A DNA stretch of 20,195 nt. It comes from Candidatus Dadabacteria bacterium (lineage in GTDB: Bacteria > Desulfobacterota_D > UBA1144 > Nemesobacterales > CSP1-2). Shown piece by piece: positions 7,049 to 20,011 of this stretch; positions within the stretch are counted from its first letter, which is position 1, and each line of letters opens with the position of its first letter. The position numbers and the translations under genes were made by a program. The notes beneath the pieces were generated by a model. It worked only from the letters and a program-made list of their open reading frames with translations. It was not told where the DNA came from and made no database searches. The stretch lies in the NCBI GenBank assembly GCA_040289575.1, contig PSLL01000023.1, forward strand, positions 1 through 20,195, in the 5' to 3' direction.

Positions 7049-8784
7049 CTATAGGTTCTTATCCGTTACCGCACCCTCCGATGCCGATGTGACGAGCTTG
7101 GCGTACTTGGCTAGTGCGCCTCTTATAGCCTTTGGTCTCGGCCTCTTCCATGCGTCAAGTCGCTTTTTAATCTCGCCCTTTGGAACATTTAGGTTAATCT
7201 CCCTCTTTGTAGCGTCAATCGTGATGCTGTCGCCGTTTTTTACGACGGCGAGGACTCCCCCTTCGTAGGCCTCCGGTGTAATGTGTCCGACGACAAACCC
7301 GTGGCTTCCGCCTGAGAACCGTCCATCTGTAATAAGCGCCACGTCTTTGCCTAAGCCCCTGCCCATAACCGCCGAGGTGGGGCTGAGCATTTCCCTCATA
7401 CCGGGGCCCCCTTTAGGCCCTTCATAACGGATTACAATGACGTGTCCCTTCTTTACCGTTCCATTCAATATGGCTTTTAGACATGCCTCTTCCGAGTCAA
7501 AAACAATCGCCTTTCCGGTAAACGACAGACCTTCTTTGCCTGTAATCTTTGCAACGGCTCCCTGAGGCGCCAGATTACCGTAGAGGATTACAATATGGCT
7601 GTCTTTCTTTATGGGATTATCAAACGGGGCTATAATTTCCTGCCCTTGAGGATAGGGCTTTACATCCTCCAAATTTTCCCTCAGTGTCTTGCCAGTAACC
7701 GTCAGGCAATCCCCATAAATCAATTCCCTGTCAAGGAGCATTTTCATAAGTGGTGTTAGGCCGCCGATCTTACAAAACTCGGACATTAGATACTTGCCGC
7801 TCGGTTTGAGGTCTGCGAGCACGGGCACTTTTCTACCGATTCTCGTGAAATCATCGAGAGTGAGCTTAACATCCGCTGCGTGAGCCATAGCCAAGAGATG
7901 GAGTACGGCATTGGTTGAGCCGCCTAGCGCAATGACTACAGTAATGGCATTCTCAAATGCCTTCTTTGTCATAATATCCCTGGGGAGTATGTTATTTCGG
8001 ATCAGGTTCATGACAGCAGCTCCGGCATTAAAGCAATCGTCGTTTTTTTCGGGCGATATTGCCGCCTGAGCGGAGCTGTTTGGGAGGCTCATACCCAGTG
8101 CCTCATCGTATTTGCCGTATACATCCCCCCGCATGAGCCTGCACCGGGGATGGCGCAGGACTCAATTGATTTGAGCTCATCGTCGCTTATTGTTCTACTG
8201 GCATGTGCGCCCACAGCCTCAAACACAGAGACAATATCAACCATCTTGTCGCAGTATAAGCCGGGCATAATTGTGCCTCCATAGACAAAGACGGACGGGC
8301 GATTGAGATATGCCATAGCCATCAGGCATCCTGGCATGTTTTTATCACAGCCACCGATGGCGACCAATCCGTCAAAACCTTCAGCCCCCGTCACGGTCTC
8401 AATTGAATCGGCAATGACCTCGCGGGAGACCAAGGAGTAGCGCATCCCTAGGGTTCCCATCGAAATGCCATCTGAGACCGTTATGGTATTGAATATTATG
8501 GACTTGCCTCCGGCATTATCCACACCGCGCCCGGCCTCTATAGCCAGTTTATCAATGTGCATATTGCAGGGTGTAACCATACTCCATGTAGAGGCAATAC
8601 CTACGACCGGCTTTTGAAAGTCCTCGTCCTTGAAACCGACTGCCCGAAGCATGGCGCGGCTTGGGGCACGCTCGACGCCTTCTACAAGTATAGAGGAGTA
8701 TTTCCTCAGATTGTTTTTTGCTTCTATTAGGTTGATGCTTGCCTTTTTCAATATGTTTTTTCCCTCCTTGTCAGATGAATTCAC
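7049..8784 (-). pseudogene. ilvD: Dihydroxy-acid dehydratase, frameshifted at 8103/8104
   Basis: 5' ORF has [35 protein letters not shown]; 3' ORF resumes EALGMSLP and has [25 protein letters not shown]. The junction reads ACG ATG|AG GCA, so the conserved MASAIEALG lacks about 13 nt. The true start may be TTG 8751 (AGGAGG upstream). Confidence 0.9.
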
Positions 8785-9795: not shown

Positions 9796-9999
9796 ATGCA
9801 AATTAAGGTGATATTAGAACCCGCTGAAGAAGGGGGATATACCGTGTATGTACCATCTCTTCCTGGATGTATCAGCGAAGGAGAAACAGAAGAAGAAGCA
9901 CTGGCTAATATCAAAGAAGCGGTAGAACTCTATTTAGAGCCGATTGAGGACGAAATGTTCATAACGGAAAGTCGCATTATTAAAGAGGTTACGATTTGA
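9796..9999 (+). CDS. hicB: Type II TA antitoxin, HicB family (short form without DNA-binding domain)
   Basis: AAGGAGAGG RBS; LEPAEEGGYTVYVPSLPGCISEGETEEEALANIKEAVELYLE. Confidence 0.93.
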   Translation: MQIKVILEPAEEGGYTVYVPSLPGCISEGETEEEALANIKEAVELYLEPIEDEMFITESRIIKEVTI

Positions 10000-10223
10000 G
10001 TGAAGTTCCGAATCTGTCCTACACAGAGATTATTAAGGTGTTACAAAGAGCAGGATTTATAGTGGTTAGACAGCGAGGAAGTCATATAAGGTTACAGAAA
10101 AGAACTCAAAGTCGTATTATCAAGATCACGGTACCCGCACATAAGCCAGTTAAAAAGGGCACTTTGGCTCGAATTATCAAAGATGCTGGACTGACCGTAG
10201 AAGAATTTAAACAACTTCTTTAA
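9996..10223 (+). CDS. hicA: Type II TA toxin, HicA family mRNA interferase
   Basis: TTG start overlaps the hicB TGA; LQRAGF..VRQRGSH (catalytic His), ITVPAHK...GTLARIIKDAGL. Confidence 0.93.
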   Translation: MSEVPNLSYTEIIKVLQRAGFIVVRQRGSHIRLQKRTQSRIIKITVPAHKPVKKGTLARIIKDAGLTVEEFKQLL

Positions 10224-10240
10224 TTAATCGTATAAACATA

Positions 10241-10314
10241 TCTTTCAATTGTCAAAGACCTCACGGTATCGGAGTCGTTAACCTAATCGTAGTAAAATCC
10301 AAATCCATTGTCAA
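10241..10314 (-). promoter_or_regulatory. Orphan CRISPR-leader start: sigma70 promoter plus boxA-like antitermination motif
   Basis: Directly after the cas2 stop: TTGACA (10314-10309), 17 nt, TACGAT (10291-10286), then GGTCTTTGACAATTGAA (10260-10244). Confidence 0.7.
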
Positions 10315-10316
10315 GC

Positions 10317-10595
10317 TCAAACTACGATCATATTTTCAAGCGTAACCTTTTTTCTTATTCCCACCCTCTCGATTCTATGCCGACACCTGGGGCAAATGTC
10401 ATAGTAAATCACACTGTCTTCATTCTTGTTGATTATTCGTTCTACCTTATCTCTTATAAGAAGAAAATTCTCATCGCTTAACTCGCACTCAAAAACACTG
10501 AATTGCACAGGGATTCCGTAGCCCTCAAGGATTTTAAAAAGTTTAGTTCTCTTTCTGTCGTCTGCTATATCGTAAACGAGGATTATATTTCTCAA
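10317..10595 (-). CDS. cas2: CRISPR-associated endonuclease Cas2 (intact, TTG start)
   Basis: VYDIADDRKRTKLFKILEGYG.PVQFSVFECEL...DSV..Y.IC..C. Confidence 0.95.
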   Translation of the reverse strand: MRNIILVYDIADDRKRTKLFKILEGYGIPVQFSVFECELSDENFLLIRDKVERIINKNEDSVIYYDICPRCRHRIERVGIRKKVTLENMIVV

Positions 10596-10600
10596 TCAAA

Positions 10601-12253
10601 TCACCTCACCACAAACGGCACGTATTCATCAATCTCGCCATTAATGACTTTGGCAAGGAACCTTGCCTGAATCTCAAAGATTCTTCTGTAAATCACCCTG
10701 TAATCGAATACTGGATGGACTATCTCAGTTTGAACCCTAAATGCATAAGCCTTAAAAAAGGCCTCTCTACCATTATCTTCTAAGTAAATCCCACTGAATT
10801 TCTCTTTAAAGTTTTCCTCTGAGAGCATCCCCTTATTAAGCATCGAAAGTACAAGGGAATCAACTATAACAGGACGAAACTCATCCATAAGATCGAGTGT
10901 GAGTGCAGGACGTCCATATTTTGTTGAATGAAAAAATCCGATATATGGGTCGAGTCCGACTGTAGATATAGCGGAGACCATGTCTCCTACAAGAATGCTG
11001 TAGCCGAAGCTAAGAAGTGCATTGACGGGATCACGGGGTGGACGCTTTGTCCTCTTTTCAAAATCAAATCCGAGAGATTTTGATTTTATGAGCCTTCCAA
11101 ACACCCTGAAATACTCCCTTGTTCCAATCCCTTCAAGACCAAGCAACTCATCTTTTTTTCTTGCCTCCGTTACTTTATTTAGAACATTGTTGATCCAACT
11201 ACATGCCTTCTCTACCTCGGCATCTTCAATTTCTCTATTCTGTCTAAGTAGAAGCGTGCGCATGTTTGAGAGCTTTAGGGCAAACGCTCCATCAAGATGA
11301 GATTTATACTGTGCCAATCTTAGAAGTGAGTTTTTGCTTTCCTACGGAACGAATTTTCCTTCGAACCTACCCCCAGGAGAATTGATATATTATCTCGACA
11401 TTCATTCTTAGTAGAAATTTTATAGCCTGTGTAGAGATATTCGCGTTTGCCAAAAGAACAACTTGTCTTAGATAGAATGCGGGCACTTCCGATATAATCT
11501 CCTTGCCTTTAGTAACAATAATCTTTCCTCATCTTTTCCCAACATAGGCTCTGTGCTCATCTACATAGAGGACTCTCCCTGTGTGAAGCTCGGGGATAAT
11601 TCGCTGGGGTCTGGGGTATCCCCGACTGGATCGGGGATCTAGAGGAGGGTTTTTTAGGAAATCACTTGTTGGAATTCTCTTATTCTTTAGAGAATTAACC
11701 TCAAACGGAAGGCATATAGAAAATAGGGGGCGCATCCGGGACATCTCTCATCCGCCACAGGTTCAGGGATTTCACCTCTGTAGAGTATCTCTCTGACCTT
11801 CTGTATTGTTTCAACCGATGTTCTCCTGAGCTCATCGCTAAACTCGACCCTTCTTCTTGTCTTTGAGGCTGAATAATATATGTATCCAAAGGGGATGCGC
11901 TTTCCCGTGCACTCTTCTAAAAGAAGTGCTTCAAGACAAACCTGAACATCGTCATGAAAGCTTTCCTTCAATTCCCCTCTCTTATATTCTATCGGGTAAA
12001 TCCCCTCACCCTCTTCTACGGCATCGAGCACACCGATTGTTCCCAACTTCTCGGATGATAGGCTTATCTCTCTAATCTGTGTTTTCTCTTGAGTTCTAAC
12101 CCTTTCCCTTTCATTCCTTTTTTCATCCTGAAGGGAGCCATCGAGGACAAATCTATTTATCTCTTCCGCACCCTCGCATGCACGGTAATAGAAGTTCCTA
12201 GGACAGAAGATGATTTCTGAAATCAGAGATACTGGAAGGAGTTCATCCCACAT
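10601..12253 (-). pseudogene. cas4/cas1: Cas4-Cas1 fusion, disrupted
   Basis: Cas4 part: FCPR, G.LD.VE, PIEYKRG, Q.C....LLEE, RCPGCA then LFSICLP after a frameshift in the C5 run at 11726-11730. The same frame runs through a linker into Cas1 LYVDE..AYVGK with no stop or restart. Further lesions: TGA 11529-11531, frameshift near 11382, TAG 11342-11344. Cas1 C-terminal part: LLGLEG, RPPRDPVNALLSFGY, GLDPYIGFFH, LDLMDEFRP. Confidence 0.9.
11618..11638. repeat. REP-like GC-rich palindrome inside the cas4-cas1 linker
   Basis: ATCCCCGA-CTGGA-TCGGGGAT with perfect 8-bp arms; translates as DPRSSRG on the coding strand. Confidence 0.6.
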
Positions 12254-12256
12254 TGT

Positions 12257-12877
12257 TCATTTCTCTACCCTATCCCTTTTTGCATTAGGTACCTTCAGGT
12301 ATCTGCCTTTCTCGAAATGATAAAGTTCAATATTAAAGTGTGCGAGCCCTACAAATGGTCCGATTTGAAACCCCAATACAACGGGTACGGAGAGTATAAG
12401 ATGTATTGTGGGACCTTTATGGACGGTGTTTATTGTTTGAATAAAATCCGAAATCCTTCTTGCTATAGATGGAAATTCATTGGGCACAATTTCACTTACG
12501 GATGAGACCAAATATTCGACAGGTCTTTCAAGTTGGATTCTTACATCGCTCTCTGTCTTCCTTGAGATCTCTACGGCAAGGGTTATTTCCTTATCCGATC
12601 GGACTTTTTTAAGATATTCCTCGATTGTCTGCGTGTCCTTGGTTTCTATGAATTCTTCGTATGCGCAAATGAGACTTTCCCCAAGATCTCCTTTAAGAAC
12701 AAGTGGTATATCCGCGGTTTCATCCATCCGGTAAAGCTCATCCTTTCCCCGATAACTACTTTCGGAGATGACATTTGTCATTTCTTTTGTCTGCTTCTTC
12801 GTGGCGATTGTAATTACCCTTCCTAGAATTAAAGTTGTGGTGCTTTCAATTAGAGAGCTAATCACGGCTTCAATCAT
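12257..12877 (-). CDS. Stand-alone SAVED-like (cyclic-oligonucleotide-binding) domain protein, intact
   Basis: 206 aa, no stops; C-terminus IHLILSVPVVLGFQIG...IELYHFEKGRY resembles the SAVED C-terminal motif (IHLF..xP...AF..G.....I.LY...Y); no recognisable effector domain. Confidence 0.7.
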   Translation of the reverse strand: MIEAVISSLIESTTTLILGRVITIATKKQTKEMTNVISESSYRGKDELYRMDETADIPLVLKGDLGESLICAYEEFIETKDTQTIEEYLKKVRSDKEITLAVEISRKTESDVRIQLERPVEYLVSSVSEIVPNEFPSIARRISDFIQTINTVHKGPTIHLILSVPVVLGFQIGPFVGLAHFNIELYHFEKGRYLKVPNAKRDRVEK

Positions 12878-12944: not shown

Positions 12945-13900
12945 CTACGGTAAGACTAAAGGCTTTATTTTTGACCCGTCAATCTGGATTCCGTATCTTG
13001 TGGCTCTGTATGTCCGCATAAGCCCGACAGGGATTATCTTATAGTAGATGGCAATCGCACGGTTGCCTAAGACACTTTCGATTTGTTTGTTTATCTTGCT
13101 AATATCCTGAAGGATGTTTTCTCTAGAGAACTTGTATCTATCTAGATTGGCTTCCGGGAGTATCTTTTTAATGTAACCCCTGATTTCTTCCAAATGTTTG
13201 TTTATAGAGTCTGCCCCTTTTAGCGGCTCAAAGCACGACTCCTCGGAAAGACTCCTTCGCCTCTCGGCATAATGGGCATAGAGCGCAATATGCTTTGGTT
13301 TAAGGTTTATCTCCTTTTCTCCAATCTTCATGTACCTTTTCTTTAGATTCATCTCAATATCCTCCACAGAATGCATCGCATCGATTTCTGTTTGGGCGAT
13401 CTTAACCATACTGCTAAATGAGGGTTTCTCAGAGCCAAATAGGTTTTTTATTTTATCCCTCAGTCTAACATAAGGAATCTTGGCAAGGTCAATGCTCGAT
13501 TTCTCTTTTGGTGATTTCTTCGGATAGAAAAACATCTTGTCTTTTTCTGATTTTTCATCCACAAGGACGTGTGAGAGCGTATCCTGAGGTCTGCCAAAGA
13601 GCATAAGGGTATAGGCGAGATAGACCGACATCGTTTTTCTCCCACCGGCGATTGAGCAGTGGAAAGCAGTATCTGAGTCCTTTGTCTTCTCTCTTATAAA
13701 CTCTGTAATCTGGTCTGCAACGGCCTCATTGTCTTCCGGAGTGCGAATATCCTGAAGGGGTTTTCCTGCTTCAGTCTGTAAGGAGAATGATTGAATCTTC
13801 GTTGAAGCGAATCGAGGAAGGAGTTATCTTATACTCCCTGCAAAAATCAAAGAAGCGCCCATTTTTCGGATCTAGGAGTTTTGCGAGAATTTCTCTTTTT
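12945..13900 (-). pseudogene. NE0113/TIGR02584-like CARF protein (Crn1/Csm6-type ring-nuclease family) with C-terminal extension, disrupted
   Basis: Reconstructed: KREILAKLLDPKNGRFFDFCREY...(frameshift ~13770-13780)...GKPLQDIRTPEDNEAVADQI...FHCSIAGGRKTMSVYLAY...RPQDTLSHVLV...FFYP...LAKIPYVRLR. The family N-terminus (G.SPQ..TET..AL) is absent, and the sequence abuts the upstream gene's stop. Confidence 0.85.
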
Positions 13901-14916
13901 ATTCCCATCTGAGTTTTGGAAAAATGTCATCCCCGAATGTAGTAATCAGGGACTCGACCCGTTCTGCCCTGGTGCAGCCCAGAAAATCTTTTACGATAGA
14001 TGAGAGTTTTTTAAATGTTTCTTCTGAGACTGGATTTAATCCGTGTGCGAGAATAGAGCTGTTTCTTGCAAAGAGGGTTCTATCCATTTCTTCCCTGCGC
14101 TTGAAGAAAAGTTTGCCAAACTCATTGTCAGCTTCTTTTAGCACAGCGAAAATACCATAGAGAGGGATTTTTATCTTGCCGTTATGGGCTGTGTGTTTTT
14201 TCCCCATCTCATCTCTCAGAGATTCGGGGAGTTTCTTGATTTTTGCATCAGAAGTTGAGCATCCAAACTGTTTTTCAAACTCAATCTGTCCTCTCATCTC
14301 AAGCGTGCGGTAGAGTCTTGCAACCGCATCATCGTACTTTCCCTCTTCAGAGCGTCTCTGGGCGTTGCGAAATAAGTCGAGGAGGGTAGCCTCTTTATTG
14401 CCCTTAATTGTTTTGAGGAATTCCAGATTTCTTTTAGCCGATTCGGCAAAGTCTTTTAGAATCGGGTCTGTTTTGAAATTAAGGTATTCCGAGAGTTTTT
14501 TCACTTCCTGATCTAAAGTCTTTAGTGCTTCATTATGATTAAAGCTGTCCCATAGCCTGTATCCTTCGATGAGATTAGAGAGGCACTCAAACAAAGCCTT
14601 ATCAATTCCGGTCAGATTTTTGGCTAATTTGTCCGCTACGTCTTTAGCAGCGGAGAACTGATAGCTGTTAAAAAAGAGAGCTATCTTTTTTCTGTCTTCA
14701 ACAAGAAGCACCTGCCAGGGACTTAATCCCGTTTTTACCTCTTCAAATCCACTAACTACAACTCCCAGTCCACTTTTCGTTCTTTCTTTTCCGCCTACAT
14801 ACGAGAATGTGTAGCCCTTCGTAGAGGAAATATAAATAATCTGGCCTATGGGTTTCGATTGACTTTACAATAGAGTCTGGCGTTCCGCCAAGGGAAACTA
14901 TAAGGGTTTTTGGCAT
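13899..14916 (-). pseudogene. TIGR02710-like CARF-HEPN CRISPR ancillary protein with out-of-frame internal deletion
   Basis: ATG 14916: MPKTLIVSLGGTPDSIVKSIETHRPDYLYFL, then a jump near 14825 into another frame, TKGYTFSYVGGKERTKSGLGVV. The CARF core (TGGTK segment) is missing. C-terminal part has NAQRR...GKYDDAVARLYRTLE and HEPN-type RNSSILAHG. Confidence 0.87.
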
Positions 14917-14961
14917 CGCTAAATTTTACCTTAACTATTCACTCATGCACATCATGGTTGG

Positions 14962-14981
14962 CGGGACATAAGGTTTTCTAC
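14962..14981 (-). repeat. Possible degenerate 5' half of the CRISPR repeat
   Basis: GTAGAAA-ACCTTATGTCCCG versus repeat GTAGAAAGACTCTAACTCCCG, 16 of 21 columns identical by hand alignment; same strand, 7 nt after the vapC stop. Confidence 0.35.
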
Positions 14982-14988
14982 TCGCATT

Positions 14989-15387
14989 CTATCTAATCCA
15001 TATCAAACTCAATTCATCTACCGTTCTGAATTCTTCATCACCTGTCAAAACTCCTGCTTTAAGCTCCATAGCTAAAGCTATACAGAAGGCATCAGCATAT
15101 GAGATAGGATATTTACCCTTTATTTTGGAAGCCTCCCTTATTCTCTTTGTTGTGGGTTCTACAAAAACAATAGGGCAATCTCTTCTTCCTTCCCAAAACT
15201 CTTCAGCATCTACCGTTTTTCCCCTCTTTATCAGTGTGTAGTAAACCTCTCCCCAATTTATCAGGTTCATATAGGCTTTTACTTTTCCCTTGGTACTTCT
15301 TTCAAGAAAGTCATTTACGATTTCGTACCCTTTATCCTTCCCAAGTAAGGTAAGCATAGCAAATGCATCAAGAACTACCTTTTCCAT
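14989..15387 (-). CDS. vapC: Type II TA toxin, VapC/PIN domain (intact)
   Basis: VVLDAFA, INWGEVYY, ISYADAFCIALA, VLTGDEEF; the acidic PIN residues are present; overlaps the upstream antitoxin by 13 nt. Confidence 0.93.
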   Translation of the reverse strand: MEKVVLDAFAMLTLLGKDKGYEIVNDFLERSTKGKVKAYMNLINWGEVYYTLIKRGKTVDAEEFWEGRRDCPIVFVEPTTKRIREASKIKGKYPISYADAFCIALAMELKAGVLTGDEEFRTVDELSLIWIR

Positions 15388-15635
15388 TTGCTTTCTTTTT
15401 CCTTTTCTTTTTTCTTCTCTTTCAAATATTCGCGGATTAATTCTTCTCCCTCAAAGATACCTATCCACTCTCTCCAGTCTTTTCTCCTCTTTCTCATAGG
15501 TCTTAAGACTATAGAATTGTTGTCTCCTGTGGTTTCCACCTCCAATATCGTACCTTTCTCAAGTCCAAGTTTTTCCCTTATCTGCTTTGGTATTACTACT
15601 TGTCCTCTTTCTCCAACTACAGATTTCATATTCAT
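15375..15635 (-). CDS. AbrB/MazE/SpoVT-family antitoxin (VapB-like, intact)
   Basis: AGGAGG RBS; VGERGQVVIPKQIREKLGLEKGTILEV. Confidence 0.92.
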   Translation of the reverse strand: MNMKSVVGERGQVVIPKQIREKLGLEKGTILEVETTGDNNSIVLRPMRKRRKDWREWIGIFEGEELIREYLKEKKKEKEKESKWKR

Positions 15636-15678
15636 ACCTCCTAAGTATGAATATATCTCTTAAAATCAAAAAAATCAA
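15628..15678 (-). promoter_or_regulatory. Putative abrB-vapC promoter and palindromic operator
   Basis: TTGATT (15678-15673), 17 nt, TATATT (15655-15650); perfect 10-bp inverted repeat ATATTCATAC-N7-GTATGAATAT (15628-15654) spanning the -10, RBS and start codon. Confidence 0.65.
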
Positions 15679-15679
15679 G

Positions 15680-15715
15680 GTTTCAATTTCCTTTCGGGAG
15701 TTAGAGTCTTTCTAC
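15680..15715 (-). CRISPR. Solitary 36-bp CRISPR repeat (no spacer array)
   Basis: GTAGAAAGACTCTAACTCCCGAAAGGAAATTGAAAC: GT start, small CC-CGAAA-GG stem, canonical ATTGAAAC 8-nt 3' tag; same orientation as the cas genes; intergenic. Confidence 0.8.
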
Positions 15716-15862
15716 AGTACTCTCAAAAATCTGAACAATTCTAATAAATTTATAACCTGGTTTTCAAGCAACCCAACTTGTCCACAACTTGTAAACATGA
15801 CAATTTTTAACCATATCCTCTAACCTATCAAATCATTAACTTTTCTTTTATCGAGCAACCCC
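15716..15862 (-). promoter_or_regulatory. CRISPR leader remnant upstream of the solitary repeat
   Basis: AT-rich and abuts the repeat; motif GGGTTGCTYGA occurs twice (15851-15861, 15764-15774); exact IHF consensus WATCAANNNNTTR (TATCAAATCATTA, 15826-15838, + strand); ACAAGTTG twice; possible TTGAAA-18-TAGAAT (15767-15738). Confidence 0.6.
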
Positions 15863-16731
15863 TGCCTTTTCTGCATTTCCTCGCTAAATTTTGATTCCTC
15901 CTTTTTAGGAGATAGGTCTTCAAGGAAGCTTCTTTTCTCCCTTCTAAACCTGTGGAGGAATGTCTCATGGAAAAGTTGACCGATTGCGGTTAGAGCAACC
16001 GTCTTTTTGCCTTTTATTGTTTCTACTTCGACCAGCGTGTTTAGTCTCTTGTCATTCGCTAGATCCTTTACCTCATCGTAAGGAACAAGGTCATCAGTTG
16101 AAAGCCTTTTAAAGTCTTCATAGTTCGAGAGCCAGAGGTCAAAATTGAAACTAACAGGCTGTGGCGAGAGTTCTATAATCTCTTCAAATCTTTCAAACAT
16201 ATACATGACCAGGATTTCAAGGGCCTGTCCTATAAGACCTGCAAAAGAGATTTGAGCTTTATAACCACCCGTGGCATTTAACGATACGCTCTGCTCCTTT
16301 TTCTCTTACAATTTTTGTTTTGCTATCTCTTTAACTAAATTCTTAAGCCCCTCAGTCTGGAATTTTTTGACATCGTAGTCTTTGAATCCTTCTACGGCCT
16401 TGGCAATAACCCTTTCAAATCTGTAGGGGTTTTTTGAGTATTGATAGTAGTGCTTAAGAATCTCCCCGATCTCCCATCCCTCATCCGTATGGGAGACGAG
16501 GAATTAGAGTTCTTCTCGGTCTTCAAGCTTTCCCTTTCTTATGAGGCTTGTAATCGAGTTTATCTCCGCCCCGCAAACTCTGTCTGAGGGGTCACGCCTT
16601 AAGAGTTCCTTGACGAGTCCCGTTACATTTCCCTTTCTCTCGCAAACCTTTATCGGGTCGCCTTCATCCAGGCGTTCAATGTTGCTAAAGAGGCTTGTCC
16701 CTACAGTACAGATTAAAGTGTCACGACTCAT
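15820..16731 (-). pseudogene. APE2256/TIGR02619-like CARF CRISPR ancillary protein, disrupted
   Basis: ICTVGTSL, CGAEINSI, (TAA 16504-16506) FLVSHTDEG, GLKNLV, NATGGYKAQISFAGLIGQAL, YMFERFEEIIEL. An apparent 5-bp duplication CAAAA (~16312-16322) creates a second TAA, and a probable 2-bp loss near 16280 restores the frame. The last ~15 codons run into leader-like DNA. Confidence 0.88.
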
Positions 16732-17448
16732 TTTATCCTTACCACCTGTCCCATGCCCATTGTTGTCTTGTAGCCCACACCTGCAAAGAATGCAAAGTCG
16801 GCGAGGGTGCTTATCTGCTTCTTTTCTTCTTTTGTAAATTTTTTCCCCATTCTATATTCGACTGTTCCTTTAAAACCTATCTTAAATCTTATCCCCGAAA
16901 AGGAGTTCCATTTATCAAGGAGAGAGCCGAAAATAAGAAGGGTTTCTGGGATGGTGCATTGCTTTCCTTTGCTCCTGAAAGAAGTAGGAGAAATAAACCT
17001 AAGCTTAATCCTATCAGCGGATTTTGCCTCTTCAAAGAGTTTTGGATAAAGAGATGACCTTACCCAGGGGCTTGAGTTTTCCTGATAATTTATGTTCCTT
17101 ATGATTATTCTTTCATTTGCAAGAGAGAGCTTTGTTTTGAGATTGAGCGCTTTCCCGAATGCGGCAAGAATATCTGGGATTAGCTTCTCATCCAGGATGG
17201 ATACCCTAAAGGAGGTATTTTCGCCGGAATCCAGAAGTGACTTTCCCTGGGTTTTTGTTTTTCTCTCAAGAATCCCGGAAAAGGAGAACGGTTTATGCTT
17301 TCTATTTCCGTTGTAAATAAAATCGGCTACTTTATCGGAATAGTCTCTCAGAACCTCAAAAAAACAAGCCGTGTATGGCTTCCCCGCCATAACCATTTAG
17401 GGTTATTGGCTCCAGGGTTTCAATCTCGATAACAAAGCTTGAGAGCAT
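16728..17448 (-). pseudogene. cas6: Cas6 crRNA-processing endoribonuclease, frameshifted
   Basis: ATG 17448: MLSSFVIEIETLEPITLNGYGGEAIHGLFF, an extra base in the T7 run (17358-17364), then HKPFSFS, FISPTSFR, WNSFS, GFKGTVEY and G-loop FAGVGYKTTMGMG. The segment between WNSFS and GFKG looks ~30 aa shorter than usual. Confidence 0.9.
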
Positions 17449-18608
17449 TCATTCAGCCTCGATTTTAATCCAGCCAAGGGTGAGTTCTTCCTTTGTTGCC
17501 GGATTGATTATAACCTTTCTTGTTTTAGGGAAGTTGTTTGTATAAATTCTTTTTCCTGTAGATTTAAGAAGCTCAACATAGTCTCTGTAAGTTTCTTCCC
17601 TAAGCTTTTTTACAAGTTCGGCAAGTGTAATACTCATGAATCCCTGATGTTTTCCAATTCTTATTACAGGTGAACTCTCGTTATTAGCTCTTTTTATCTC
17701 TTCTAATTGGTTTATTGCGCTGTCTACTTTTAACCTTCGGTAGAAATTGAGTTCCTCTTCTATAACCTTTTCAGACATTTTATAACAAGCTTTAAAGATC
17801 GGCTCAAGATTATTAAAGAAAGATTTTCTTTGATCACCTGCTTGAAAACGATTTACAAACTCTTCAAACTATTTTCCCTTAATAATCCCTATTTCTCCTT
17901 GAAATTCAGTGTTATTTGGAACAATCTCATGAAAATCACCTATTGGTCGAGAAGTATTTTTAGTTTGTATATTCATTACAAGTCTTTCTACCTTTTTAGG
18001 ATAAGCGTCGGATACAAATATGAACTTCATAAAGTCAAATTTAGCATCATTTTTTGAGGAAGGCGGAAGGCTCTTGCGGATATTTCTTCCTCAAGTTTTT
18101 TCAATTCTTTTCTGACTTCTTTCTTATCTATATTCCTGGAGAGTTTATTCTTAATATCTTTTATCTTGCTAGAAATGAAACTTCCGGAAGAACCATCAAG
18201 GATTAACTTCCTAAGAATAGCGGTTCTTAATGCTCCCTTAATTTCGGTTCCAGGTATATTTATATTAAGGTTGGTTTCGTGATTTAATAAATGTCCAGAA
18301 TTTACTAGGTTCATCACTTCCCCGGAAGCTAAGCGAAGAGGATGCCTTGTCAGAAGCAACTTTCAATATTTGTTCTGTATTACTATAGGTTCTAAAAAAT
18401 CCGAGGAGGCTGGGTGATTCATTGTTGATAGCGCGTAGTTAATAAAATCCTCGAATTGTCTGGTCAAAAAGCGTTGTAAATCTTCGGACTTGTATAAGTA
18501 AATTTTCCCATTGTATAGAAAATACTCCAGATTGCTTAAAATATTTCCATCTCCTATGTGTAGGGGAGAAAGAGTTTTGTATCTAACCTTTCTAAAAACC
18601 TTTTCCAA
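17449..18608 (-). pseudogene. csm5: Type III-A RAMP Csm5, disrupted
   Basis: TLSPLHIGDG, IPGTEIKGALRTAI, DFMKFIFVSDA, IRIGKHQGF, FPKTR, LGWIKI. Lesions: TGA 18363-18365, frameshift in the A6 run at 18050-18055, TAG 17869-17871. Confidence 0.9.
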
Positions 18609-18620
18609 GCTTAACCTCCG

Positions 18621-19289
18621 TTACAGATCGAAAAAAGCGGGGAAAGCAAGACCGTTTTGATATATGGATTTCCCTCCTATATTGCAGACCTCGATAACCC
18701 TGCCATAGAATTCCTTTTTCTCCTTTGCTTCGAACAAAGAGCCTTCTTTCATATAGAAAACCCTATCCTTTATAAATCTCTCTCCTTGAAAGTCATAGGA
18801 GTTATCCACTCTAGAAATGTAAGGTTCTATCCCATAAGACGTTCTATCAGAGTCGATATTAAGCTCATTTGGATCAGGAATATATTTTGAGAGTGTAACA
18901 AAATTTCTACTTTTTCTTTCAAATCGTAAATCAATTTCTTCTGTCGAAACCCTAAAATGATTGAGACCTATTGTTCTATCTCCTCCTATTCCGTGATCAG
19001 AAAGAAATTTGTCTTTATCAAGAAGTGGTTTAAAAAATTCAAAGTTATCTGTCTTTAGAAGGAAAAACAGTGAGAATCCCCCACCTATTATCTTTGTTTC
19101 ACTGTGAAACATCTCTCCTTGTCCGGTAGTTGAACCGGTTAAGCGATCAATCCTAGTTCTTATTCGAATGTCGTCTTGAATGAATCTGTCCTCTAATTCT
19201 TTTTCTTCTCCACTTTTTAGAAGAAATCCGCTTTTTTCTATAATTTGTCCTTTCACAAAATCTTCAAAAAGCGATTTCTCAGTTGCCTT
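18621..19289 (-). pseudogene. csm4: Type III-A RAMP Csm4, 5'-truncated at the IS end
   Basis: Frame is open from the IS boundary (KATEKSLFEDFVKGQ...); R.RIDR.T, GIGGDRTIG, FVTLS.Y.P, MKEGSLF, GRVIEV, YQNGLAFP; N-terminal third absent. Confidence 0.88.
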
Positions 19290-20011
19290 GGGATTTTTTC
19301 AATAGGTGTGTAAAAACCATTCAGGCGGTCTTCCTTTTTTGATTAACTTTTACATCTTCTACCATTACCCCATTAACAAATCTCTTTCCCGCATAAACTT
19401 CCGGTAACAACCGGTATCCCCTGAGTGCATAAAAGTCCTTCTCTGCTAAGCAAAGGAGCTTCCATATCATCGCCGTGGCGTTCTCTACTCTCTTGAACCT
19501 CTTAGCTGCATCGGTCCTCAGCCGGATCGAACTAAAAGGTGACTCCACAACATTGGTAGTCCTTATATGCACCCAATACTCCTTGGTATATGAATAAAAC
19601 ATTACCATCCGCTGTACTTCGCTTGAACAGCGGCAGTACCTTGCTCTCAAACTCCTCTGCATTTCTTAACCGTGGCCTCCTAATCCTTATCGTCCCATTC
19701 ATCAGTGCTAGCCTTCGGGGCTTCTCATACCCATTTTGGTACCCACTGTGTGTATCTATCTTCCTCCTTATCCTCTCCGATTTTCTCCTCCCTAAGAATT
19801 CGGTGATCTCTTCCTCAAGGATATCCTGTATAAACTCCCCTACCTTCATCCTTACTGCTTCTTCCAGTACTTCATAAGTTACTCTTGATTTACCTGCCTT
19901 CTTATCGGTATTCTTTCCCAGGGGTGGCGTCTCCCTTCTTTTTTTGAAAATTTGGCTATGAATAGGATACGCCGCCTCTCTCAACTTTTACACTCTTTTT
20001 GATATTATCCC
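19290..20011 (-). mobile_element. IS256-family element, 722 bp, with internally deleted transposase
   Basis: Imperfect terminal IRs GGGATTTTTTCAATAGGTGTGTAAAA (19290-19315) and GGGATAATATCAAAAAGAGTGTAAAA (reverse complement, 20011-19986). Transposase N-terminus (LEEEITEFLGR..SER...GYQNGY.KPR...G.I.I.RPRLR...FESKVLP) joins out of frame near 19613 to the C-terminus (HIRTTNVVESPFSSIRLRT). Confidence 0.92.

Follow-up and report, generated by a model that had tools for sequence, protein, structure and literature searches.

The window, by which we mean the whole stretch of 20,195 nucleotides that was analysed, carries on its minus strand a type III-A CRISPR-Cas locus in which an abrB-vapC toxin–antitoxin (TA) pair follows a single CRISPR repeat and its leader. 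A sequence-only reading had described this anatomy as a leader, one 36-bp repeat, an abrB ATG 44 nt further on, intact abrB and vapC and, 7 nt past the vapC stop, a 'half repeat', and each of these parts is indeed present. The features are listed below in order of position; G and L numbers denote the relatives compared, among them L114, a related metagenome contig.

10317..10595, minus strand: cas2, intact (PF09827, E 6.4e-23; full-length 75% match to L114)
10601..12253, minus strand: cas4-cas1 fusion pseudogene with two frameshifts (NF049935)
12257..12877, minus strand: SAVED-like 206-aa gene, intact (PF18145; full-length tblastn match to the 204-aa protein of L114)
12948..13914, minus strand: NE0113-type csm6-like pseudogene, frameshift near residue 87 (partial matches to PF09623 and TIGR02584)
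13899..14916, minus strand: TIGR02710 (cas02710) CARF-HEPN pseudogene, residues 32-106 missing, with a change of frame
14962..14981, minus strand: 'half repeat', weakly similar to the repeat's 5' portion (16 of 21 columns, one gap)
14989..15387, minus strand: vapC, PIN-domain toxin gene, intact (PF01850, E 4.8e-14)
15375..15635, minus strand: abrB/SpoVT-type (MazE-fold) antitoxin gene, intact (PF04014, E 2.4e-14; TIGR01439, E 2.8e-16)
15650..15678, minus strand: promoter-like site of the TA operon itself, TTGATT-17-TATATT (promoter scan)
15680..15715, minus strand: solitary degenerate 36-nt CRISPR repeat, GTAGAAAGACTCTAACTCCCGAAAGGAAATTGAAAC (homology to the array repeats of relatives)
15716..15885, minus strand: CRISPR leader, conserved part of ~170 nt (alignment to the leaders of five arrays in four relatives)
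15767-15738, minus strand: promoter-like site in the leader, TTGAAA-18-TAGAAT (promoter scan)
15820..16731, minus strand: csx1-like CARF pseudogene, in-frame TAA stops at 16504-16506 and 16309-16311
16728..17448, minus strand: cas6, frameshifted near codon 21-30, leaving a 222-aa ORF (PF10040, TIGR01877)
17449..18650, minus strand: csm5 pseudogene with one in-frame stop and one frameshift (TIGR01899 pieces)
18621..19286, minus strand: csm4 3' fragment, residues ~129-347 only (tblastn; TIGR01903 profile positions 127-301)
19321..19984, minus strand: IS256-family transposase remnants (NF033543 and PF00872 fragments)

The decayed type III-A locus

The breaks in the genes were located by tblastn with proteins of relatives. 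The L114 and G003 proteins match cas02710 with residues 1-31 in frame -3 and residues 107-410 in frame -1, and the deletion junction is also present in a contig of another run, X4. The csx1-like ORF lacks its last ~85 codons, its tail runs into the leader, and the 373-aa G004 protein is covered over residues 1-288 only. Residues 1-35 of Cas6 are encoded in frame -3 (17448-17359) and the remainder in frame -1 (17387-16734); G004 Csm5 is split likewise, with residues 1-193 in frame -1 and 194-394 in frame -3. The cas4-cas1 fusion matches the 538-aa L114 and G003 proteins in three pieces (frames -2, -1 and -2), and the csm6-like gene was traced with the 363-aa proteins of L114 and G003 and the 360-aa protein of G004. 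The IS256 remnants occupy the place of the missing cas10 3' part, csm2, csm3 and csm4 5' part, and just beyond them, at contig positions 20012-20972, lie Cas10 fragments with stops that cover profile positions 21-309 of 753 only. A tblastn search of the window for a Uma2 remnant found none.

A functional type III-A system has intact cas10/csm1-csm5 and cas6, and here all of these are broken, truncated or missing. Judged by the state of its genes, the type III-A locus of the window is dead, and with cas6 frameshifted and the Csm effector genes turned into pseudogenes the setting of the repeat and TA is not an intact one. The sole other Cas6 found in the genome belongs to a type I-B locus. Sequencing noise as the source of the frameshifts was considered and set aside, given that two of the breaks are TAA substitutions, that one deletion junction is reproduced and that the cas region is densely broken.

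The gene ilvD is split as well, which makes some assembly error possible.

A lone repeat beside an intact toxin–antitoxin cassette

The leader is conserved in six loci (the window, G003, the two arrays of G004, G010 and L114) with a mean column identity of 76%, and blastn gives 70-78% identity to G004 and G010; no second copy was found in the window's genome. In the six-locus alignment the 36-mer stands in register directly 3' of the leader. It is identical to the repeat of the 35-copy G003 array at 31 of 36 positions, which bears out its proposed kinship with array repeats, and it can be aligned with one or two gaps to the repeats of G004, G010, L113 and L114. By this homology the 36-mer is a true CRISPR repeat.

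It is nevertheless solitary. At up to three mismatches there is one copy in the window (0 of 100 shuffles match) and one in the whole 3.06-Mb genome, exact or near-exact copies at the same threshold occur in 0 of 40 relatives, and a degenerate repeat pattern matched only in G000 and G003 among 120 genomes of the class. A CRISPR array consists of at least two repeats with unique sequence of spacer length between them; here the nearest repeat-like bases are ~700 bp off and marginal, and beside the repeat there is neither a second repeat at spacer distance nor a spacer-sized guide. The repeat has also lost its hairpin. Relatives carry the 7-bp pairing AATTCCC/GGGAATT and the window AACTCCC/GGAAATT, which breaks two pairs, and the minimum free energy is -2.4 kcal/mol (z 0.26) compared with -8.0 to -12.7 kcal/mol in all five relatives' repeats. 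The window repeat has no match to the Rfam CRISPR-DR families at E<=10, whereas L114 repeats score 31.9 bits, and Rfam at gathering thresholds returned no match in the entire window.

The TA genes are intact and overlap by 13 nt. The ATG 44 nt past the repeat is the first in abrB, and a better-spaced ATG at 15629, 50 nt past the repeat, is the likely start. The window AbrB shares 74% identity with its L114 homologue, and across 18 close homologues VapC residues D7, D99 and D117 are invariant and E47 nearly so (at least 90%). A 95%-identical VapC (P0001) lies on contigs of ~1.1 kb. With a PIN toxin that has its acidic residues, an upstream overlapping gene for a DNA-binding antitoxin and a promoter-like box of its own, abrB-vapC is by sequence features an ordinary type II toxin–antitoxin operon of the VapBC class. 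It would be transcribed from its own promoter, which AbrB would be expected to repress from the known behaviour of its family, and the PIN-domain VapC would, on the same grounds, be a ribonuclease restrained by AbrB. The promoter-like site begins 2 nt 3' of the repeat and aligns with a TTGAC(T/C)-17-TAT.TT box 5' of abrB in six of seven other contexts, CRISPR-linked or not.

Comparison with relatives places the repeat and the cassette in context. A single-VapC query scan of genome contigs gave no confirmed relative, and a scan with a VapC alignment added a single close match, on the 450-nt contig of G006; its 79 further matches were distant, at <=44% identity, and were left out of the comparison. 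Metagenomes yielded 80 TA loci, of which the 8 at >=69% identity were compared and the 72 at <=44% set aside as too distant. L114 has the same gene order as the window, with a 5-repeat array directly before the TA, cas02710 ~27 nt past the TA and no half repeat. In G003 the TA (77% nucleotide identity) lies between cas6 and cas02710 with no repeat nearby, and a 35-repeat array sits after cas2; in G004 an 11-repeat array follows cas6, csx1 and leader, and the TA is absent. The position of the TA in the type III locus is common to G003, L113 and L114, and 7 of 12 TA contexts (G006, L110, L111, L112, L115, L116 and L117) have no repeat nearby where flanks are present. Between cas6/csx1 and cas02710 the loci of this family vary: the interval can contain leader and array, the abrB-vapC cassette, or both.

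The sequence-only reading had said that its proposal would be refuted by relatives in which a normal multi-spacer array is merely followed by the TA and the half repeat is lacking, and L114 is such a case. The idea of the TA as a giant spacer fails on the same array and on the repeat-free TA of G003. The relatives favour instead the simpler alternative, already named in that reading, of an array of which one repeat was left after collapse, with an unrelated TA as its neighbour. We consider it probable that the solitary repeat is the last trace of an array and, with equal confidence, that the whole is what remains of a CRISPR array, within a type III-A locus decayed to pseudogenes and beside an ordinary, self-sufficient TA. 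This is genome decay and no new regulatory device.

We infer an ancestor that would have resembled L114, with cas6, csx1, leader, a multi-spacer array, abrB-vapC and cas02710, followed further on by cas4-cas1 and cas2. The array would then have been reduced to one repeat in the window's genome, and this repeat would next have acquired the two hairpin-breaking substitutions; meanwhile stop codons and frameshifts would have built up in the cas genes, parts of them would have been deleted and an IS would have inserted. The abrB-vapC pair may have been kept intact as a selfish addiction module while the neighbouring genes decayed.

One observation runs against this scheme. Had an L114-like ancestor lost its other repeats by plain recombination between repeats, the last spacer would still stand before the TA; because only 2 nt separate the repeat from the TA, an extra deletion must be assumed.

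The bases behind vapC and competing explanations

The half repeat is 20 nt long and aligns to the first 21 nt of the repeat from position 1 and on the same strand. The reported 16 of 21 alignment is reproduced but does not stand out clearly from chance: random genome windows of 60 or 72 nt reach its score in 2.4-3.0% of cases and shuffles in 3.3%, and when the 12 nt after the vapC stop are dropped, p rises to 0.68 against the window's own repeat and to 0.23 for the best of six repeats. Most of those 12 nt are common to the TA flank of G012, L111 and L112, where GAGTAGA, the first bases of the half repeat, also follows the vapC stop and no repeat is seen near the TA. The order repeat–TA–half repeat, for which a check of conservation in relatives had been proposed, is not found there, given that the half repeat is absent in all three other CRISPR-linked TA copies (G003, L113 and L114). 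In a comparison of the 72 nt after vapC with the trailers of five arrays, no homology was seen past the repeat-like bases. From these comparisons the half repeat is most likely a chance similarity aided by bases of the TA flank.

The same bases are the core of an alternative that we regard as unlikely, in which the TA cassette, by insertion or recombination, took the place of one or more spacers that lay between a first and a degenerate terminal repeat, and the half repeat is a real relic. That it starts with repeat position 1 and shares the strand of the repeat is consistent with this, as are p values of 0.024-0.033 against the window's own repeat, 0.016 as best of six, and 0.002-0.003 each against the G004 and G010 repeats. 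The match to the truncated terminal (third) repeat of the G010 array is 16 of 20 ungapped (p ~0.045), and the terminal repeats of the G004 and G010 arrays have likewise kept their 5' part and lost their 3' part. In this family terminal repeats decay from the 3' side, so a G010-like half repeat that starts at position 1 on the same strand could be a true relic. The cassette is also mobile, with an L110 copy lying between 70-nt direct repeats beside an IS110 transposase, and its homology spans from 2 nt past the repeat to just past the stop codon. In L114 the TA promoter starts 40 nt past the last repeat, about one spacer length (spacers 37-39 nt) and hence the place where a terminal repeat would start. 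This alternative is opposed by the GAGTAGA shared with repeat-free contexts, by the loss of significance without the 12 post-stop nt, by the three CRISPR-linked TA copies that lack a half repeat and by the missing trailer homology. Even if it were correct, the structure would still be debris without function, the locus around it being dead.

Short-read assembly is known to collapse arrays, the genome assembly consists of 126 contigs, and six array-only contigs are binned with it. A real genome with a long array, which the assembler collapsed to one repeat, is nevertheless very improbable. The array-only contigs bear unrelated repeats, neither the repeat (<=3 mismatches) nor the leader occurs a second time in the genome, and a hairpin-degenerate repeat would be unexpected in an active array. 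Two other runs gave k=31 contigs that read through the 36-nt repeat and reach unique flanks to its left and right, with 0 differences and without loose ends (X3, 15253-15796; X4, 15586-15789); since leader, repeat and abrB are unbroken in them, they argue that no assembly collapse took place. X3 and X4 share their two studies of origin with the possible source runs, and at their depth of only 3-6 a rare variant with a longer array would escape notice. Their cover ends near 15976 and 15789, short of the csx1 stop codons.

About as improbable is a functional unit in the intact ancestral, L114-like form, in which abrB-vapC would be the physical tail of a type III-A pre-crRNA. Array transcription and a Cas6 cut at the last repeat would there determine how much TA mRNA is present or where its 5' end lies, linking a protein TA to crRNA biogenesis, and with leader, one repeat and TA the window would retain this unit in its smallest form. 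If intact relatives did work in this way, the range of CRISPR-guarding addiction modules would come to include protein TAs and type III systems.

For the window itself, the sequence-only reading had proposed a crRNA-tagged TA mRNA: the leader promoter would give an RNA with one repeat and the TA, and a Cas6 cut 8 nt from the repeat 3' end would tie the TA mRNA to Cas6/Csm, much like a protein version of a CreTA-type guard. The leader promoter-like site, the repeat and the TA are co-directional with no terminator predicted between them, the L114 array likewise runs straight into the TA, and spacers of type I mini-arrays can match promoters of TA cargo genes in the cases that PMC10120712 describes. 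However, the window's genome has broken copies of cas10, csm4, csm5 and cas6 and lacks csm2 and csm3, the only other Cas6 found is that of the type I-B locus, the window repeat lacks the hairpin that all five relatives keep, and no spacer-sized guide or second repeat at spacer distance accompanies it. The TA, moreover, retains its own conserved promoter, is repeat-free in G003 and seven other contexts, and in L114 has a terminator-like hairpin within its promoter region. Nothing found here supports the coupling idea, and we hold it to be the least probable of the readings considered.

Known systems and biological meaning

Mini-arrays near type III loci were judged to be degraded, non-functional repeats by Shmakov et al. 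2023 (PMC10120712). Like the standalone repeats beside type III loci described there, the window repeat lies outside a proper array, at a position unconserved among relatives and with no evident target. Unlike them, as far as that description goes, it has a full conserved leader, which marks it as the remains of a main array and not as an ectopic copy, and the surrounding locus is pseudogenised.

Pairs of vapBC genes interspersed in cas cassettes are described, for example from Sulfolobales and from the type III-D cassette of Acidianus hospitalis (Garrett et al. 2015, PMC4390879). As in these cases, a VapC-type TA separates functional modules within a type III locus, and by analogy a TA in such a place is plausibly a maintenance or addiction module. 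Compared with the cases given in that article, the window differs in its bacterial (Desulfobacterota-type) lineage, in its AbrB-fold antitoxin and in that its TA has outlived the cas genes that it may once have stabilised.

In the accounts of CreTA/CreR (PMC8501985, PMC9458426, PMC10120712), the guide CreA, of spacer size, lies between two repeats and pairs in part with the toxin promoter; it depends on an intact type I Cascade, and the toxin CreT is itself an RNA (Li et al. 2021, cited in PMC10120712). The window resembles CreTA, so described, in that one or more degenerate repeats adjoin a toxin within a CRISPR-cas locus. It is unlike CreTA in that ~700 bp encoding a protein TA separate the repeat from the doubtful half repeat, the effector is of type III and broken, and a guide is missing; 2 nt past the repeat lies the TA promoter itself, and there is no intact effector complex.

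The finding matters little in itself. For scans it is a caution, given that a lone repeat beside a toxin gene can mimic a CreTA-type regulator, a question that synteny with relatives settles quickly. For the biology of these loci, it is a clean example of the death of a CRISPR-Cas locus, with the array down to one decaying repeat and the TA cassette intact throughout.

The repeat, its leader and the toxin-antitoxin pair

The genome, 95% complete, consists of 126 contigs and 3.06 Mb; contig C30 is 40,622 bases long, and the window is its opening 20,195 bases. The arrangement described by the sequence-only reading, namely a repeat, abrB, vapC and repeat-like bases after the stop codon (the 'half repeat'), was found on the minus strand at the following positions.

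15680-15715, minus: 36-mer repeat, GTAGAAAGACTCTAACTCCCGAAAGGAAATTGAAAC
15678-15650, minus: promoter-like site of the toxin-antitoxin (TA) pair, TTGATT-17-TATATT
15635, minus: first ATG of abrB, 44 nt after the repeat
15629, minus: second ATG of abrB, better spaced from the AGGAGG box than the first
15387-14989, minus: vapC, overlapping abrB by 13 nt and ending in TAG
14981-14962, minus: half repeat, GTAGAAAACCTTATGTCCCG, 7 nt past the vapC stop

Family hits are PF04014 for AbrB (E = 2.4e-14) and PF01850 for VapC (E = 4.8e-14), with the acidic PIN residues D7, D99 and D117 invariant and E47 at least 90% conserved among 18 close homologues. A single copy of the 36-mer turned up when the window was scanned at up to three mismatches (0 of 100 shuffles contained a match), and the whole genome also contains just one. 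Homology identifies it as a CRISPR repeat: a blastn search of 13800-17500 against 40 relatives, combined with direct inspection, located related arrays in three of them, with 35 copies of GTGGAAAGACACTAATTCCCGGAAGGGAATTGAAAC in G003 (31 of 36 positions identical to the window repeat), arrays of GTAGAAATACCTCTAATTCCCGTAGGGAATTGAAAC in G004, and, in G010, GTAGGAAACCTTCTAATTCCCGCAGGGAATTGAAAC twice in full with an incomplete third copy. The G010 array (locus L015, 7669-7830) follows cas2, and its third repeat is cut off after ~14 nt, leaving only two full repeats; within the window's family of loci it is a further example of an array that is shrinking. Leaders of five related arrays can be aligned with the ~170 nt that precede the window repeat (mean column identity 76%). 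This stretch contains a promoter-like site, TTGAAA-18-TAGAAT; 'leader plus one repeat' was therefore the right description.

The window repeat itself is degenerate. The stem AATTCCC/GGGAATT is perfect in five of five relatives (-8.0 to -12.7 kcal/mol) vs AACTCCC/GGAAATT in the window, where two pairs are broken (-2.4 kcal/mol, z-score 0.26). At up to three mismatches the repeat is absent from the 40 relatives, and a degenerate repeat pattern applied to 120 genomes of the class matched only this genome and G003. None of the Rfam CRISPR-DR families matched the window repeat at E≤10; in a small Rfam search the repeats of L114, a metagenome locus, reached 31.9 bits (E = 0.006) against CRISPR-DR63, under the gathering score.

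Four sequencing runs contain most of the window stretch. Assembly collapse of a longer array was rejected because contigs from two of them, X3 (15253-15796) and X4 (15586-15789), both built from 31-letter words, run through the repeat into the unique sequence that flanks it on either side, and do so without differences, joints or loose ends. This evidence is limited by a depth of only 3-6 and by the origin of X3 and X4 in studies that also include the possible source runs; runs X1 and X2 gave no contigs.

State of the type III-A locus

Gene breaks were identified by tblastn, using intact L114, G003 and G004 proteins as queries, together with translation and sequence checks.

cas6: frameshift near codon 21-30
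csx1-like CARF gene: two in-frame TAA stops, last ~85 codons lost
cas02710: residues 32-106 lost, with a frame change
NE0113-type csm6-like gene: frameshift
cas4-cas1 fusion: two frameshifts
csm5: interrupted by a stop and by a frameshift
csm4: reduced to residues ~129-347
IS256 remnants: in the expected place of csm2, csm3 and most of cas10
abrB, vapC, a 206-aa SAVED-like gene and cas2: intact

Just outside the window only fragments of Cas10 with stops are left, and the cas02710 deletion junction is also present in an X4 contig. The locus is dead and pseudogenised. The genome has one further Cas6, which is part of a type I-B locus on another contig; in the type I-B cas locus on C84, cas8b consists of two ORFs. 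Six array-only contigs of 2-4 kb (C2, C8, C11, C16, C83 and C114), assigned to the genome by binning, carry four other repeat types, unrelated to the window repeat, and their spacers look richer in G+C than the window.

Elsewhere in the window, a frame at 7049-8784 (minus), which from its translation we take to be an ilvD-like dihydroxy-acid dehydratase, is broken into a pair of overlapping ORFs (8089-8784 and 7049-8134). The split is either a real housekeeping-gene frameshift or an assembly error, and matters for the confidence placed in the cas-gene breaks.

The same place in relatives

The close VapC clade (at least 67% identity) holds 16 database proteins, with the next relative down at 45%. 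Across 12 TA contexts, from genomes of the family and 8 close metagenome loci of 80 returned, the succession of repeat, TA pair and half repeat is not conserved. In L114, a 180-kb contig with the gene order of the window, five perfect repeats stand immediately 5' of abrB-vapC, cas02710 starts ~27 nt past vapC, and no half repeat follows the pair. L113 has a 10-repeat array ~1.4 kb upstream of the pair, which is followed by a further gene, presumably Uma2-type. In G003 the pair lies between cas6 and cas02710 without any repeat, the array being located after cas2, and no repeat was seen near the pair in G006, L110, L111, L112, L115, L116 or L117. The G012 contig begins within vapC, so this context covers the downstream side only. 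Two genomes lack the pair: G004 has cas6, csx1, a leader and an 11-repeat array, and in G001, a member of the window's genus, all that is left of a repeat is a 3' piece ~300 nt before cas02710. This piece, CTTCCCGAAAGGGAGTTGAAAC (L007, contig C135, reverse complement ~838-862), has the GAAA loop of the window repeat; a 56-aa ORF occupies the window's TA place.

The half repeat matches the genome's own repeat with a local score of 10, which 2.4-3.0% of random genome windows, and 3.3% of shuffles, also reach; p is 0.002-0.003 against the G004 and G010 repeats and 0.016 for the best of six repeats. The match begins at repeat position 1, shares 16 of 20 bases with the truncated terminal repeat of G010 (p about 0.045), and terminal repeats in this array family lose their 3' part first, all of which would fit a true relic of a terminal repeat. 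However, the bases straight after the vapC stop (AGAA...GAGTAGA) also occur in the TA flank of G012, L111 and L112, and without those 12 nt significance is gone (p rises to 0.68 for the genome's own repeat and to 0.23 when the best of six repeats is taken). We consider chance similarity the more probable explanation and a relic the less likely one; either way there is no functional consequence.

A predicted autonomous cassette beside a residual array

Judged from an alignment of eight contexts, the pair is a predicted autonomous cassette: homology starts at the -35 box (TTGACT in most) and stops just past the stop codon, and the promoter moves with the pair whether CRISPR sequences are nearby or not. 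In L110, the closest metagenomic copy (VapC 89% identical), the pair is flanked by 70-nt direct repeats (253-322 and 1127-1196, 89% identical) and followed by a transposase gene, which we assume to be IS110-type; this suggests a mobile cassette, moving as a unit. In L114 (7634-7715), 40 nt separate the last full repeat from the -35 box and spacers are 37-39 nt, so the TA promoter begins at the expected place of the terminal repeat; a terminator-like hairpin lies within this promoter region (7715-7732).

A second pair, hicB-hicA, lies directly after cas2 in the window (9796-10223, plus), where G003 and G010 have a leader and array. With hicAB-type genes also adjoining the abrB-vapC cassette in G006 and L113, loci of this family show a clustering of TA cassettes. 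Two 31-nt direct repeats (10225-10255 and 10284-10314; 71% identical, 59 nt apart) lie in the interval from hicA to the cas2 stop; they resemble none of the CRISPR repeats encountered in this analysis.

According to PMC10120712, TA cargo is frequent in CRISPR loci, and mini-arrays occur near 10-14% of type III loci, at unconserved positions and with targets not found, and were judged degraded, non-functional repeats by the authors. PMC4390879 describes vapBC pairs scattered within cas cassettes, with a suggested help in locus maintenance. CreTA-type modules depend on an intact effector and on a guide of spacer size flanked by two repeats; the window has neither. The sequence-only reading had favoured a TA pair coupled to Cas6/Csm or captured as a giant spacer. 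The counter-case which it named, relatives with an ordinary array and the pair simply downstream without a conserved half repeat, is what L114 shows. That the pair is a transcriptional tail of the array, tied to crRNA processing, in intact L114-like loci is highly improbable. The structure is real but ordinary: within a type III-A locus that has become pseudogenised, a residual, decaying array adjoins a VapBC-type cassette predicted to be autonomous.
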